Shown one piece after another: positions 5,077 to 45,076 of a stretch of 64,000 bases of DNA. The stretch is taken from positions 1,216,001 to 1,280,000 of the forward strand of contig CAXXDV010000001.1 of NCBI GenBank assembly GCA_963674745.2, in the 5' to 3' direction. The first letter of the stretch is position 1. The number at the start of each line of letters is the position of its first letter. The stretch comes from Desulfosudaceae bacterium. Lineage in GTDB: Bacteria > Desulfobacterota > Desulfobacteria > Desulfobacterales > Desulfosudaceae. Under the pieces are notes generated by a model. That model had not been told where the DNA came from. It was given only the letters and a program-made list of their open reading frames with translations, and did no database searches. Both the position numbers and the translations under genes were made by a program.

Positions 5077-5096
5077 ATAGTTGATTGTTATCTGCA

Positions 5097-5135
5097 ATAA
5101 AAATACCCCTCAAGTAGGTTGAGGGGTATTTTTTT
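5097..5135. terminator. Bidirectional rho-independent terminator
   Basis: AAAAATACCCCTCAA-gtagg-TTGAGGGGTATTTTT inverted repeat between convergent operons. Confidence 0.85.
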
Positions 5136-5153
5136 GTATGATTATATTGTTTA

Positions 5154-6044
5154 TTAAAACAATTCTACAGTACGTATAATCGAAGGAGACGACTTATCCA
5201 CTTCTAGTTTATCATTATTTCGTCTGAGAAAATTGTTTGGGGTAGATTCCATTTTTAAAGACTTAAGGGCATCGCATCTTTCTGCGGAAATCGTCTTCAG
5301 CTTTTCCGGGATCAGGTTTATAAAATTTAAAAGGCGGAAAACAGGAATAATATAAGCAAAGCCTCTATTCTCATCTCGCGTTTTTCCGTGGACAATACCG
5401 ACTAGTTGGTCAGGTTCCCCTTCGATAAAAACACCGCTGCCAGAATAGCCCGGTGTTGTTACAGCATCGCTAATCATTAAAACACCAAGATCTTCCATCA
5501 ACCAGAAACCTGATATTATACCTCTGCTCATCGCACCATAAAAGGGCTTGCCAGGCTGGCCAAACATAACGATGGAGGTTCCGACTTTTTGATCATTCGT
5601 AACGGGTTGGGCAATATCAAACCCTCCAATATTAATCATCAACAAGGCAGCGTCATTCTCAGGACTTTCATCAATAATTTGAGCTTCAATATCAGACGAA
5701 GAATCCATGGCCCGGCATGGATTGCTGGACCATGGACGTACATAAATTTTTTGCGCTTTATTAACAAGGTGGCTGCTTGTCAATAAAACCGACTGCCTCT
5801 TGTCGGAGAAAACTGAAACAGCAATTCCTCTTTCCAAAAGTAATTTGCCATTTTCTATTCTTTCAGCATATACAAAAAAGGAATTTGTTCTATGAGGTTC
5901 TCCGGCTTTTCCATCATACATAGATTCATCCATATTAGTTAAGCTATGTGTCGATATGGGGTGGTCTTTGTTTGATGTAATGAGAGAACAAGCTGGTGTG
6001 ACCAAGAGCATAATCAGAAAAACAATTAATGTATAGGGTCTCAT
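5154..6044 (-). CDS. Trypsin-like (S1/Trypsin_2) serine protease, probable lipoprotein
   Basis: Triad motifs LLTSSHLV, NDAALL, TPGYSGSGVF; signal peptide ending in Cys (VTPAC). Confidence 0.85.
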   Translation of the reverse strand: MRPYTLIVFLIMLLVTPACSLITSNKDHPISTHSLTNMDESMYDGKAGEPHRTNSFFVYAERIENGKLLLERGIAVSVFSDKRQSVLLTSSHLVNKAQKIYVRPWSSNPCRAMDSSSDIEAQIIDESPENDAALLMINIGGFDIAQPVTNDQKVGTSIVMFGQPGKPFYGAMSRGIISGFWLMEDLGVLMISDAVTTPGYSGSGVFIEGEPDQLVGIVHGKTRDENRGFAYIIPVFRLLNFINLIPEKLKTISAERCDALKSLKMESTPNNFLRRNNDKLEVDKSSPSIIRTVELF

Positions 6045-6055
6045 GTTATACCTCG

Positions 6056-6826
6056 TTATTGATTATGTATTGTGATCGTTACGCGGGCAATACGGTAGTT
6101 TACGCCACGACTTTGAACAACGCCTACCTCAAAGAACTTCTGGATATTTCTTACACTTTCATGTGCACTTTTCAGATATGCCATGAGGCCATAGCTTCGT
6201 AATGCTGCGAGTTCCTCATTGCTGATGGTTTGCCCTGGTCTAATCTTAAATTCAGTGGGATATCCGTTCAGTGTTGTCTCGTTTCTGGACATATTCACAA
6301 TGCCCCATTCGCCCCGGTAATAAAGAGGCCGGCGAATTGGTGTTCCGTCAGCCTGCCCGCTGAACGTTGCACGGATAAAATATTTTCTCATGCCTTCCCT
6401 CTCAAGACGATTTGTGACATCGGCAATCGCCTCACCGACAAGATTTGTAAACTGAAGCGCTTCGCGTTTGTTCAGTAATCTTGTAGATTCCGCTGCCAGG
6501 TCATACTCTCCAAGAGGGAACATAACCGTTGGGGATGACCATACCAGGTCGATTTGTGCACCGTTTGATGTAGGCGTACAGGTAATATCAAAATCTGAAT
6601 TGGGATAATTTTTTGAATAGTATGGATTTTGACGGTAATTCAATTTGATTTGACGGGTTGTGCCTTCACCAATCAGGTATGCTCGGTTCTGGTACGAAGC
6701 GCCTCTATAATATCTCAGTGGGGAGCCATTTTGGGGATTGGTATTTGCAAGCATAAATTCATTTAATGAACTGCACCCGCTTAAGTAACAAGCCATTAAC
6801 AACATAATGATTATTTTATGTTTCAT
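6056..6826 (-). CDS. Lipoprotein with divergent OmpA-like C-terminal domain
   Basis: Lipobox LSGC; FPLGEYDL, GQADGTP, LAALRSYGLMAYL, YRIARVTITI follow the OmpA_C motif order. Confidence 0.6.
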   Translation of the reverse strand: MKHKIIIMLLMACYLSGCSSLNEFMLANTNPQNGSPLRYYRGASYQNRAYLIGEGTTRQIKLNYRQNPYYSKNYPNSDFDITCTPTSNGAQIDLVWSSPTVMFPLGEYDLAAESTRLLNKREALQFTNLVGEAIADVTNRLEREGMRKYFIRATFSGQADGTPIRRPLYYRGEWGIVNMSRNETTLNGYPTEFKIRPGQTISNEELAALRSYGLMAYLKSAHESVRNIQKFFEVGVVQSRGVNYRIARVTITIHNQ

Positions 6827-6854
6827 AATTCTTTCCTCCCGATTTTAATGATTT

Positions 6855-7277
6855 TTATTTAATACCCTGGATTCTTCCAGAATTTTGAGAATAATTATTC
6901 ATGCTATTGATTTGACAATGAGGTGCGATTGCTGTCATTGCGCCGATTCCAGCACCCAGGTGAATGATTCTGCCTTTATTGATTATTCTGTTGTTTCGAT
7001 AAAAAATTCGTCCACCATTCACAGAAGGTCGGATGTCAAGCATGCACGTCGGGTTCCTCGGTCCGGATGTAAGGATTTTGTCAAAGTTAACAATTGTATT
7101 TCCAAACACTATTGTGATGCCGTCGGCGCCTTGCACCCTAACCGGTTGTGTCAAAGTTTCTCCAACTAAACGTTCAACTTCGAGTGTTTTTTGTTCCTCT
7201 GCATACAGGTGACCAGGATTAAACAAATGAGAACTAGATATCACCAGCAACAATGCCCAGAATTTCATCATCTTCAT
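6855..7277 (-). CDS. Secreted protein with three N-x3-N-x-G/D-x-I repeats (putative minor fibre subunit)
   Basis: Signal peptide; GNTIVNFDKI, NNRIINKGRI, NNYSQNSGRI; GGAGG RBS. Confidence 0.65.
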   Translation of the reverse strand: MKMMKFWALLLVISSSHLFNPGHLYAEEQKTLEVERLVGETLTQPVRVQGADGITIVFGNTIVNFDKILTSGPRNPTCMLDIRPSVNGGRIFYRNNRIINKGRIIHLGAGIGAMTAIAPHCQINSMNNYSQNSGRIQGIK

Positions 7278-8397
7278 AATTGCGAACCTCCACTTCTAAA
7301 ATTTTACAATTTTTTTCCAATATATCTTTTGTTATGCAAAGCTGACCTCCCCCCATCAACAGGGATCCTTTAATTACATCCTGAAGAACCGGATCTATTG
7401 GGATGTTTGGGCATAATACTGATGAAAATTGCCTTATTGAAATTTTGTAGAAGTCATTTTTCTTTATGACGCAATTTGCGGATTTTACTCCTAAGCAAAT
7501 TTGAACGTCCTCATTAGTTAACATCAAGTTCAATGGCAATTCACCAGATTTGGTTTTGGCCTGTATGGGAATTTTGGAATTATCGCGGCCTGGAATCTCG
7601 GGGTCACACATTGCGAAGGTCTTATTTAAAAGCGCCGAGGATAAATCTCTAACAGTTGCCGCAACCAGAAAATCGCTTAAGTATTGTATGGCGGCGGTGG
7701 TATTCGCTGCCAAGCTGAAAGCATACTGGCCATTTATCAAGTTGTTACCGGTCAGATGAAAAATACTGGCTCCGGTAGCAGTTGTATACAGGCGGACGGT
7801 TAATGACGTCGTTAGCACAGTTCTTCTGGTATTGGCATCAACAACTTGGACAGATGCTGCAATATTATATGCTTTAACCTCAGCGTTTAGACCCAAAATA
7901 TAATCAACTTCCGCAATGGCTGCTTTGACATTAGTGCAACCATATATAAAGGGCACAATGACAAAATCCGGTCTGACAATATCACCCAAAACTACGTCAT
8001 GAAGGATATTTTCCTGGGTAAAACCAATATTTGGCAACGCCTGCGTTAACCCCTGTATCCCAGTTAAATTTTCGGAGTCATATAGCTCATAGCCAGCGTT
8101 AATTCTGGCGAAAGAATTTTCTACAAAGGGTTTAAGCATTGATGGGAGACAAATTCCCTCAGGATCATTTATAAGTTTGTTAGTTACAGAGGCAACAGTT
8201 ATCTTTTTTGAAAAATTTTGTTCACGCGAAAGTTGACCTGAAAGACAATCCAGCCACCCCGTAGCCGGGCTGAACGCCCCGTAAATTTCGGGATGTATGG
8301 CGGTTGGGACGGCTTTCTCTGGAATCGTTTTGATAATACTACACCCCAAGCATTGGCTAATTATCACCGCCAATATCATTAAATGTTTTTTCGCCAT
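7234..8397 (-). CDS. CsgG/HfaB-like outer-membrane secretion lipoprotein with extra C-terminal domain
   Basis: Lipobox CLGC; ITVASVTN, PDFVIV, VQVVDANTRRTVLTTSL, GASIFHLTGNNLI and closing helix AAIQYLSDFLV match CsgG/HfaB topology; GGAGG RBS. Confidence 0.6.
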   Translation of the reverse strand: MAKKHLMILAVIISQCLGCSIIKTIPEKAVPTAIHPEIYGAFSPATGWLDCLSGQLSREQNFSKKITVASVTNKLINDPEGICLPSMLKPFVENSFARINAGYELYDSENLTGIQGLTQALPNIGFTQENILHDVVLGDIVRPDFVIVPFIYGCTNVKAAIAEVDYILGLNAEVKAYNIAASVQVVDANTRRTVLTTSLTVRLYTTATGASIFHLTGNNLINGQYAFSLAANTTAAIQYLSDFLVAATVRDLSSALLNKTFAMCDPEIPGRDNSKIPIQAKTKSGELPLNLMLTNEDVQICLGVKSANCVIKKNDFYKISIRQFSSVLCPNIPIDPVLQDVIKGSLLMGGGQLCITKDILEKNCKILEVEVRNYEDDEILGIVAGDI

Positions 8398-8420
8398 ATT
8401 CACCTCCACCTTATAGGAGA

Positions 8421-8456
8421 GGTGTGTGCATGGCCCTTATCAACCATACACACACC
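8421..8456 (-). promoter_or_regulatory. Intercistronic 13-bp RNA stem-loop after the first gene of the operon
   Basis: Minus strand GGTGTGTGTATGG-10 nt-CCATGCACACACC, fully paired with one G-U; no U-tail. Confidence 0.65.
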
Positions 8457-8466
8457 GTTTTAGTAG

Positions 8467-8778
8467 TTAATAAGCCTCTTGAGCGACGACTTGGCTTGAG
8501 GCCCCTCCGACGGTTTTCTGCGAGCCCTTAATTTCACCGGAATTTTTATAAACATTTCCGGAGCTTCTATAACTCAGCACCGCATCGAGTTGCGGGGATC
8601 GAGCCCGCTGGGCAACCACCTGATTTGCCGCACCTCCCATGGTGATCTGGTCTGCCAGGATTTTCCCGGTATTCTCAAACCGGTCGTTCTGGGTGTTTAT
8701 TTCGGCTTTATACCCAAAGGCCGTCGCGTTCGTTGTGGTGATCAGAAAAATTGCCAATACCATTAATATATTTTTCAT
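8467..8778 (-). CDS. Small secreted protein made of two ~33-aa N/Q/G-rich repeats (putative major fibre/amyloid subunit)
   Basis: Signal peptide (ATA cleavage); NDRFENTGKILADQITMGGAANQVVAQRA and GNVYKNSGEIKGSQKTVGGASSQVVAQEA; GGAGG RBS. Confidence 0.75.
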   Translation of the reverse strand: MKNILMVLAIFLITTTNATAFGYKAEINTQNDRFENTGKILADQITMGGAANQVVAQRARSPQLDAVLSYRSSGNVYKNSGEIKGSQKTVGGASSQVVAQEAY

Positions 8779-9310: not shown

Positions 9311-10000
9311 GTAAGCGTCAAATTAACCCCACCCTAACAGGCCGGGGCGCTCAGAGCGGCCGGATCGAGATGCTGCGGCAGTAATTTCTTGTATCCTTCC
9401 GGGTCGCCAATTAGCGGAAGCTGTCCAAAAATATAACGCAGATATAAATAGGGTTCCAAGCCGTTTGCCTTGGCCGTCTCTATCAGGCTGTTGATAGCGG
9501 CGCTGGCGTCCGCGCCTTTGGGATGGCCGGAGAAGAGCCAGTTCTTTCGTCCCAGCACAAACTGCCGGATGGCGTTCTCCACCAGGTTGTTTTCCAGCAG
9601 CAGACGGCCGTCCTGGACACAGCAGGTCAGCCGATCCAATTAGTCCAGGGTGTAATTGATGGATTTTCCCAGAAGCTCTTGCGGCGGTGTCTGTTAGCTG
9701 CGTTTGTCCAGCCATTTCTTAAAAGAGTTCAAGATGGGCACAGCCTCAGCCTGACGAAGTTTGTATATCGCTTCACAAGAAAACTCGTCTTTTTTCACAC
9801 GGCTCGCCAGTTGATACAGCTTGCCGATAACACTTAAAGCCTTTTCAGCGCTGCCAGCCTTTTGCGATTTTCCTTTCTTCACCGGTTGCCGTGCTTTGAT
9901 CACTTCGTTGAACTTGCGGAGCGCGTGTGCCCAGCAGCCGATATGGACAATACCTTCTTTCTGGTCCAGACCGCGGTTATCAATTCGGGTTTAAGCAGGC
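9311..10000 (-). mobile_element. tnpC: IS66-family remnant: 3' part of tnpC pseudogene plus terminal inverted repeat (upstream boundary approximate)
   Basis: CWAHALRKF and NNLVENAIRQFVLGRKNWLFSG...SLIETAKANGLEP motifs; two in-frame TAA stops; GTAAGCGTC end at 9311. Confidence 0.9.
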
Positions 10001-10223
10001 CGACCAAGCCGGGAATGACGAAACCTGCTGCCAGCGGATACAGATTGGCACGCATTTTCTCAGACTTATATGAAGATGTAGTTTTTTTATAATTCATTCT
10101 TCCCTTAACTCTGCCCGAGTAAAAAATAATATAGAGTAAGTAAAACATTACATATTTATCAGTCGGAGATTTTTCTGTCAGGTGTGCTTTTTCGTCAATT
10201 TATTAATCTGGGGGTAACAATAT

Positions 10224-41825: not shown

Positions 41826-42018
41826 TGTCGGGTTTCTGTGTGTGAATTGTGTGTGAAAGTTTTTCCAAAATAAGCAAAAACGTGGAAAATTGACAAAAAC
41901 ATAGAATTTAAAAACCCAATATTTTCAGCTTCCTAATAAAAAATGAGGAGGTTAGGAAACCCGGGGGTCTTGACTGGCAGTCATGAGGTCAGGGGTTCGA
42001 TCCCCCTCAGCTCCACCA
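41826..42018 (+). repeat. att arm + tRNA-Ala(GGC) 3' half, copy 1 (right junction of the large island)
   Basis: TGTGTGTGAA at 41837 and 41848; TGACTGGCAGTCATGAGGTCAGGGGTTCGATCCCCCTCAGCTCCACCA at 41971-42018; homologous to 44885-45076; no tRNA 5' half. Confidence 0.9.
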
Positions 42019-42037
42019 AAATTCTACAATGATGAGG

Positions 42038-42076
42038 AAGGGTTAACCGAAACGGCGGTTAGCCCTTTTTCTTTTT
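42038..42076 (+). terminator. Rho-independent terminator after tRNA fragment 1
   Basis: AAGGGTTAACCG-aaacgg-CGGTTAGCCCTT followed by T-run. Confidence 0.8.
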
Positions 42077-44884: not shown

Positions 44885-45076
44885 GTCAGGTTTCTGTGTG
44901 TGAATCATGTGTGAAAATTTTTCCAAAATAAGCTAAAACGTGGAAAATCGACCAAAATGTGAGATTTAAAAATCTTATAAATTCCGTTTCCTACAAACAA
45001 TTGAGGGGGTCAGGAAACCCGGGGGTCCAGCCTGGCAGCCATGAGGTCAGGGGTTCGATCCCCCTCAGCTCCACCA
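44885..45076 (+). repeat. att arm + tRNA-Ala(GGC) 3' half, copy 2 (junction with core chromosome)
   Basis: TGTGTGTGAA 44895 and TGTGTGAA 44908; CTGGCAGCCATGAGGTCAGGGGTTCGATCCCCCTCAGCTCCACCA at 45032-45076. Confidence 0.9.

Follow-up and report, generated by a model that had tools for sequence, protein, structure and literature searches.

The 64,000-nucleotide (nt) stretch of Desulfosudaceae bacterium DNA considered here (hereafter the window; assembly GCA_963674745.2, contig CAXXDV010000001.1) contains five open reading frames (ORFs) on the minus strand, at 8467-8778, 7234-8397, 6855-7277, 6056-6826, and 5154-6044, which encode proteins of 103, 387, 140, 256, and 296 amino acids (aa), respectively. 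In this order the spacers between them are 69, -44, 28, and 11 nt, and the guanine-cytosine (GC) content of the operon is 41.8%, compared with 50.8% for the rest of the contig. The products are a small repeat protein (subunit A, P0001), a lipoprotein predicted to form a pore (P0002), a second small protein (subunit B, P0003), a lipoprotein with OmpA-like motifs (P0004), and a serine protease (P0005), and only the protease was named in Pfam and NCBIfam scans (Trypsin_2). An earlier note, made from the letters of this DNA, had described the five genes as co-oriented and all furnished with export signals, and both statements hold. The export signals, assigned by visual inspection, are supported by conservation across homologues: Ala20 of subunit A is invariant in 7 of 7 small subunits, and the lipoprotein Cys is conserved in 8 of 8 close homologues of the pore, 4 of 4 OmpA-like proteins, and 5 of 5 proteases. 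It appears likely that the module is a mobile, self-contained, curli-analogous system for the export and assembly of a new beta-solenoid (cross-beta, amyloid-like) surface fibre.

Subunit A (8467-8778, minus strand) consists of a signal peptide and an 83-aa mature protein with two repeats of 42-43 aa, and repeat analysis, homologues, and modelling make it the candidate major fibre subunit, apparently from a family not described before. On the homologue alignment, the core of repeat 1 (residues 24-59; 8602-8709, minus strand) ends with the invariant Arg58 and that of repeat 2 (residues 67-102; 8473-8580, minus strand) with the invariant Glu101. The internal repeat has a score of 72, which was equalled in 0 of 300 shuffles, and the profile matches itself with an E value of 8e-12. 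The two repeats announced in the earlier note are therefore real, but neither their proposed length of about 33 aa nor their richness in N, Q, and G stood, the core being about 36 aa within the 42-43-aa period and N, Q, and G together amounting to 24%. A single-sequence search with P0001 found only P0001 itself among 6 candidates. In an alignment of seven homologues, five positions (N, G, Q, G, and Q) are identical in all 14 repeats, and another carries Arg in repeat 1 and Glu in repeat 2 in all seven proteins. Among 39,516 six-frame ORFs of the genome, P0001 alone carries the pattern twice. As had been supposed, the repeats are of neither the CsgA nor the FapC type. Curlin_rpt matched both control curlins, none of the five operon proteins, and none of six subunit homologues, and 0 of 11 A and B proteins matched the three curli patterns given in a part of PMC10192328 or the Fap motif, the latter in a loosened rendering of the version in a section of PMC12392863.

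When three copies of subunit A were modelled together with ESMFold2, an ipSAE of 0.82 was obtained in all three runs (best of 3 controls, 0.00), with a predicted local distance difference test (pLDDT) score of 85-86 and at least 95% of contacts in agreement. In the model, residues 65-103 of one copy lie on residues 22-63 of the next and the ends are free. The best pairs (79-36, 83-40, 87-44, 97-54, and 100-57) are offset by exactly 43 residues, as would be expected of in-register head-to-tail stacking with Asn on Asn and Gln on Gln. This offset puts Glu101 on Arg58, and the invariant Arg/Glu swap is therefore explained by the modelled arrangement. The trimer model supports self-stacking of subunit A, from which fibre formation is predicted; a sequence search of PDB yielded no similar complex for this subunit.

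The predicted pore P0002 (7234-8397, minus strand) is a lipoprotein of the CsgG/HfaB fold with its lipidation site at Cys19, as judged from homologue conservation, a structural model, and a tree in which it belongs to a clade of its own. A single-sequence search detected one close relative (41%) among 3549 candidates and no match in 60 related genomes, nor in plasmids or phages; a two-row profile recovered 31 representatives among 1.84 billion. The family is defined here as 30 rows including P0002, with one 40-aa fragment and the HfaB-like row P0036 excluded. The AlphaFold2 model (pLDDT 82; predicted template-modelling score, pTM, 0.74) shows a pair of long hairpins and, at the C-terminus, a domain of seven strands. 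CsgG was the first match both in Foldseek (E 4.5e-11, TM 0.55 on the target, root-mean-square deviation (rmsd) 8.1) and in VIA against 48,161 chains (Z 13.8, rmsd 5.7, 181 aligned), where DUF330, FlgT, PelC, and like cores followed with Z 9-10.5. According to model and alignment, the first predicted transmembrane beta-hairpin comprises residues 157-178 (7864-7929, minus strand), with one uncharged and one charged face, and the second comprises residues 205-229 (7711-7785, minus strand). In both hairpins the near-chargeless face alternates strictly with the charged face across the 30 rows, a pattern that would be what a membrane barrel needs. The earlier note had named a missing CsgG fold or missing beta-hairpins as a possible refutation; Foldseek, VIA, and the hairpin alternation agree that both are present.

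The same fold comparison bears on a very different role, in which the CsgG-fold protein is a PelC/FlgT-like ring rather than a pore and subunit A stacks as a strut between the outer membrane and the peptidoglycan. PelC, FlgT, and similar lipoproteins have the same core fold (Z 9-10), and three of the five products are lipoproteins, one of which may bind peptidoglycan. Such a periplasmic scaffold is nevertheless highly improbable, because the two long hairpins exist and alternate as in membrane proteins and the CsgG match (Z 13.8) clearly exceeds those to the ring proteins (at most 10.5), and a pore is the preferred reading of P0002.

With regard to sequence, no Pfam or NCBIfam CsgG match was obtained for P0002, and Pfam CsgG was matched by 3 of 31 alignment rows, the HfaB-like row among them. 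A CsgG sequence match of the family alignment (E 2e-10) was rejected as partly due to that row. Because the 14 closest rows give an E value of 0.22, the case for the CsgG fold is built on the model together with a retest without P0036, a row that was itself shown to be HfaB-like (true HfaB-like proteins score 186-237 bits with the HfaB model). In the retest against 33 references, the P0036-free profile gave 77, 35, and 30 bits for three HfaB-like proteins, 23 bits for curli CsgG, and at most 16 bits for generic CsgG-family lipoproteins. In a midpoint-rooted tree of 52 rows, for which 22 of the 33 references were used, a branch with support of 100/99 separates the 30 family rows from curli CsgG.

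These relationships also bring in the holdfast anchor as a model, in that the nearest relatives of the pore by profile score are HfaB-like and, as described in a passage of PMC6707917, HfaA forms surface multimers that are resistant to sodium dodecyl sulfate (SDS) and dependent on HfaB. Subunits A and B might then be exported via the pore and stack, as HfaA/HfaD do, into a short, capped, cell-bound anchor or adhesin that tethers something else to the surface, rather than into long fibres free of the cell, and the probable peptidoglycan tether encoded by the operon would suit a load-bearing anchor. This explanation is unlikely given that the HfaA, HfaB, and HfaD models match none of the five proteins nor the subunit homologues, that the pore family is a separate clade (100/99), and that subunit A is without a capping domain and its modelled stack is open-ended. 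Moreover, no polysaccharide genes were seen beside the module at four full loci, where they were looked for by eye and not by a genome-wide search. An open-ended surface fibre is thus favoured over a capped anchor.

The C-terminal domain of the pore (residues 285-387; 7237-7545, minus strand), a feature absent from the earlier note, has seven strands and resembles immunoglobulin/fibronectin type III (Ig/FnIII) sandwiches in the model and in the fold match (best VIA Z 8.8, rmsd 2.5, 89 aligned). Its Cys301 and Cys354 are nearly invariant. As stated in a section of PMC12822426, the C-terminus of CsgG is on the periplasmic side and binds CsgE, and the fused Ig domain should therefore be periplasmic. 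No CsgH was found in the genome.

Subunit B (6855-7277, minus strand), whose start overlaps the end of the pore gene by 44 nt, is exported, basic, and provided with an N-x-x-x-N-x-G-x-I half-repeat, as recognized by alignment and profile comparison. It had been described as a protein with repeats related to those of subunit A. The likeness is confirmed for the first half of the repeat only (E 5.6e-5, probability 66%). Internal repeats of its own were not significant (72 of 300 shuffles were as good, and the profile self-match had an E value of 0.22). The protein ends directly after such a half-repeat, and its last 90 residues contain 10-16 K+R versus 2-6 D+E. By analogy with CsgB, subunit B is a candidate nucleator or anchor.

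In the lipoprotein P0004 (6056-6826, minus strand) and its family (4 of 4 members), three motifs are kept: G-x-A-D, N-x-x-L-x-x-x-R, and, at the terminus, R-x-A-x-V/I-x-I. Asp160 and Arg210 are invariant. The motif order is that of the OmpA domains of the same genome, but about 35 extra residues are found between the first two motifs. The G-x-x-D / N-x-x-L-x-x-x-R residues we take to be peptidoglycan binders. Of its earlier designation as an OmpA-like lipoprotein, the lipoprotein and motif parts were borne out. Neither Pfam nor PDB gave an OmpA match, and an Atlas match to OmpA-like proteins (0.85) is a lead only. On the motifs, P0004 is a fairly probable OmpA-like peptidoglycan anchor. Its family occurs in 1 of 401 phylum genomes, namely the source genome itself.

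The protease P0005 (5154-6044, minus strand) is a lipoprotein of the trypsin fold according to Pfam (Trypsin_2, E 8e-10, above the cut-off) and alignment, and its His92, Asp131, and Ser201 are invariant in 5 of 5 proteases, in line with the intact triad reported previously. No PDZ family was detected in it. The residue six before the catalytic Ser, presumably the specificity position by trypsin numbering, is hydrophobic (V/L/F) and not Asp, and trypsin-type specificity is therefore unlikely. In a study of Prc, this protease is said to degrade CsgA. A passage in PMC12822426 states that Fap secretion requires a cysteine protease. By analogy, a role like that of the Fap protease or like that of Prc would fit.

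Other occurrences of the module were searched for with two degenerate patterns, which were built on 11 and 12 of 33 pore-family rows and missed most of the family. Two genome loci (L008 and L009, both in Desulfobacter latus), three metagenome loci (L015, L016, and L017), and no viral locus were detected. All five genes are present at L008 and L015 in the order of the window, and at L009 with subunit B moved to the front, so that the gene co-occurrence whose lack had been named as a further possible refutation was indeed observed. L016 and L017 were counted once, as their translations are closely similar, and the complete module is thus found at four of five loci including the window, in three organisms; two G208 loci carry the same proteins as L008/L009 and were left out of the count. 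At L008, L009, and L015, the identity to the window proteins is 39-45% for A, 28-34% for B, 35-43% for the OmpA-like protein, and 30-41% for the protease. The pore end overlaps the B start by 41-44 nt at each of the three loci that have the gene order of the window, the window included. Of 401 genomes of the class, 2 contain subunit A; it is encoded at three places in them, always immediately next to a pore gene. Pore-family matches were found in 2 of 401 order genomes (5 if HfaB-like and curli matches are included), and no member of the P0002 family was found in the phage or viral collections searched. The five-gene module is rare. In addition, subunit P0053 and pore P0012 are each on an 18,435-nt contig, which suggests one more linked subunit/pore pair, and a marine sediment run of another study contained a 282-nt piece over the pore-B junction with 24 letters different.

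Some neighbouring genes were also observed. At L008 (3506-5584), and at no other locus, the protease is followed on its own strand by a 692-aa protein that belongs to no known family. At L017 (3308-5926), an 872-aa ORF lies downstream of the reduced module and appears by eye to be a CRISPR-associated reverse-transcriptase fusion. In the genome of the window, a separate cluster of CsgG-family and repeat-domain lipoproteins is located beside a protein kinase on a 132-kb contig (G000:C2:70500-78500).

The pattern of recurrence raises the question of whether the protease is itself central. It is the only one of the pore's partners that is present at all 5 of 5 loci, it lies directly behind the pore at L016/L017, and its triad is invariant in 5 of 5, all of which would be expected if pore and serine protease were the core of a machine for protease display, gated export, or peptide import, with A and B as accessory plugs, inhibitors, or scaffolds. 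A folded trypsin domain could not, however, go through a CsgG-type channel, which carries unfolded chains according to a part of PMC10192328, and the in-register N/Q and Arg/Glu pattern of subunit A suits a polymer, not an inhibitor. Furthermore, the sequence at L016/L017 is cut off close upstream, with 642 nt left before the end of the L017 contig and L016 beginning within the pore gene, and this locus may represent a reduced copy. Such a protease-centred machine is therefore improbable, and we continue with the export and assembly of a fibre as the preferred function.

Regarding transcription and mobility, a hairpin with flanking A and T runs is located between convergent genes at 5095-5140 (z -7.1, 0 of 200 shuffles) and is likely a bidirectional terminator of the operon. 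A promoter scan remained at chance level (15 versus 11.8 +/- 3.8). A broken IS66 transposase is found at 9334-10148, about 550 nt upstream of the operon, and this insertion may have altered the promoter region. The operon is carried on an island of about 70 kb, as the earlier note had proposed in calling it island cargo. The left end of the island is formed by tRNA-Ala(GGC) and an ORF judged by eye to be integrase-like (G000:C1:1188342-1189612), and the right end by a direct repeat at 41971-42061 (plus strand), of which 90 of 91 nt are identical to the tRNA-Ala 3' end region (G000:C1:1188370-1188460). A second copy of the tRNA-Ala 3' end, 45 nt long, is located at 45032-45076, 3 kb past the 91-nt boundary, and suggests that a second, small islet has been added at this site. 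Between 13 and 5076, genes for a UvrD helicase, DUF932, and RadC converge on the operon, a gene set typical of integrative elements.

From the fold, the gene linkage, and the repeat pattern, which were obtained directly by computation, we infer the following course of export and polymerisation and the helper roles in it. Briefly, all five products would enter the periplasm via the Sec pathway, and the CsgG-fold lipoprotein would oligomerise, as CsgG does, to give an outer-membrane beta-barrel. Unfolded subunit A would then pass through the barrel and polymerise head to tail, repeat 2 of one chain being placed in register on repeat 1 of the next and creating Asn/Gln ladders and an alternating Arg/Glu column. 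Basic subunit B, which is translationally coupled to the pore by the overlap in 3 of 4 loci, may have the part of CsgB/CsgF in templating or anchoring the fibre. The Ig domain fused to the pore, predicted to be periplasmic and at the place where CsgG binds CsgE, may act as a gate or chaperone in place of CsgE/CsgC/CsgH, and the OmpA-like lipoprotein would tether the machine to peptidoglycan. The serine protease may process subunits or remove those left behind in the periplasm, in the manner of FapD or Prc.

Several observations weigh against this interpretation. The P0002 model superposes on CsgG with a large rmsd (5.7-8 A), and the core fold recurs in rings that are not pores, for example PelC and FlgT, as mentioned above. 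The CsgG fold alone is not diagnostic either, because PF03783 is present in 87 of 121 genomes from this order. The AlphaFold2 monomer of subunit A is unreliable (pLDDT 43.5) and uninformative, with no fold match. Repeat proteins may stack in such trimer models whether or not they polymerise, and the calibration of the trimer score, in which the threshold was attained by 20 of 30 solved homo-pairs versus 1 of 23 single chains, is only roughly applicable to a job of three copies with its own 7-row alignment. Subunit B has only half of the repeat of A. The comparison of P0004 with an OmpA profile (hhalign) had a probability of 0.2% and that of the Ig domain with 3 CsgH-like sequences an E value of 0.07, neither being significant. 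At L016/L017, the pore and the protease occur with no A, B, or OmpA-like gene nearby, and gene context is known for 5 loci of a pore family with about 30 clusters.

Beyond the favoured reading, a more far-reaching proposal has, in our estimate, slightly better than an even chance of being correct. It holds that the module represents a third, independently assembled CsgG-type secretion branch that makes a functional amyloid of a previously undescribed two-layer, 83-residue fold, with an Ig-domain chaperone or gate on a pore bolted to peptidoglycan, and a dedicated serine protease, as island cargo among sediment anaerobes.

Functional amyloids of Gram-negative bacteria with dedicated export are represented by very few examples, namely curli, Fap, and the holdfast anchor. 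CsgG paralogues outside curli operons were described as unexplained long ago, in a part of PMC3521004. The module gives one clade of these paralogues a candidate substrate whose repeat is unlike curlin or Fap, and it provides a stacking model that can be tested at residue level in a minimal 83-aa subunit. If the proposal is true, the module would join these three bacterial examples as another kind of amyloid-like surface fibre system. It also opens the questions of whether CsgG-type pores are general amyloid exporters, what replaces CsgE/CsgF, and which role a dedicated protease has in fibre biogenesis. In practical terms, the module could supply work on protein materials with a new small scaffold, and it could also supply a CsgG-like pore whose constriction loop is shorter and to which an extra domain is fused. 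No description of the operon was found in the literature searched; supplementary tables (e.g., PMC3521004, NanoporeDB) lay outside this search, and an unnoticed listing in them is possible.

Among known systems, CsgG and HfaB are described in a passage of PMC6707917 as exporters of amyloid-like proteins. With curli the module shares a CsgG-fold lipoprotein with two predicted hairpins, as in CsgG, and two small Sec-exported subunits, the minor one basic, with modelled open-ended in-register stacking and N/Q ladders. It differs in the repeat, which is 42-43 aa long, present twice per chain, and spaced N-x7-Q-x8-Q, whereas a part of PMC10192328 gives 23 +/- 5 aa with N-x5-Q and Q-x10-Q for the curlin repeat. 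As had been claimed for csgE and csgF, curlin, CsgE, and CsgF gave 0 matches in the 99.96% complete genome, while the E. coli control was positive for CsgE/CsgF. Further differences are that the pore belongs to a separate clade, has a fused Ig domain, and, by sequence alignment, has a constriction loop about 6 residues shorter than that of E. coli CsgG, and that the module adds dedicated protease and OmpA-like genes. A canonical curli operon with two curlins, csgE, csgF, csgG, and a csgH/C-like gene was observed in another genome of the same order (L014:4896-8998, G041).

With the Hfa system, the module shares the encoding of a small exported amyloid-like subunit directly before the pore, and HfaB-like proteins are the best-scoring outside relatives of the pore family. 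Unlike Hfa, it has no large HfaD-like protein, and it has another repeat, an extra Ig domain, an OmpA-like protein, and a protease. The HfaB equivalog NF037935 matched neither P0002 nor anything else in the genome, and HfaA/HfaD gave no NCBIfam match for A or B, a result to be read with the caution that these models may be narrow, the proteins encoded before the HfaB-like genes at L012 and L013 being likewise without a match. These two loci (L012:7676-11479, G230; L013:8216-17453, G155) are Hfa-like operons outside Alphaproteobacteria, in the same order as the source, and contain a small exported S/N/G-rich protein and an HfaB-like pore, with a 2458-aa repeat protein in L013.

Like Fap, as presented in parts of PMC12392863 and PMC12822426, the module comprises in one operon a major and a minor subunit, long imperfect repeats each forming one layer, and a dedicated protease. 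In FapC, whose imperfect repeats are stacked, stability comes from N/Q ladders and from charges that complement each other between the repeats (a section of PMC12392863). In-register N/Q ladders and complementary charges are likewise seen in the sequence pattern and trimer model of subunit A, a likeness in working that is not proof of Fap kinship. The exporter is of the CsgG type in contrast to the trimeric barrel FapF, and the protease is a trypsin-fold serine protease in contrast to the cysteine protease FapD; the subunits lack the Fap motif and have two repeats with no long linkers. No Pfam or NCBIfam Fap match was obtained for the operon proteins or subunit homologues, the rest of the genome not having been searched for Fap genes.

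Finally, phage CsgG-like proteins are the top Atlas feature matches for the pore (0.94), and phage CsgG A0A6J5RM04 (394 aa) is the top viral fold match (E 2.5e-12), with the whole length of the pore model aligned, so that some phage CsgGs may also have a C-terminal extra domain. The gene context of the phage proteins is unlike that of the module. Taken together, the module is curli-like in its predicted working, but it does not show the defining features of curli, Fap, or Hfa.

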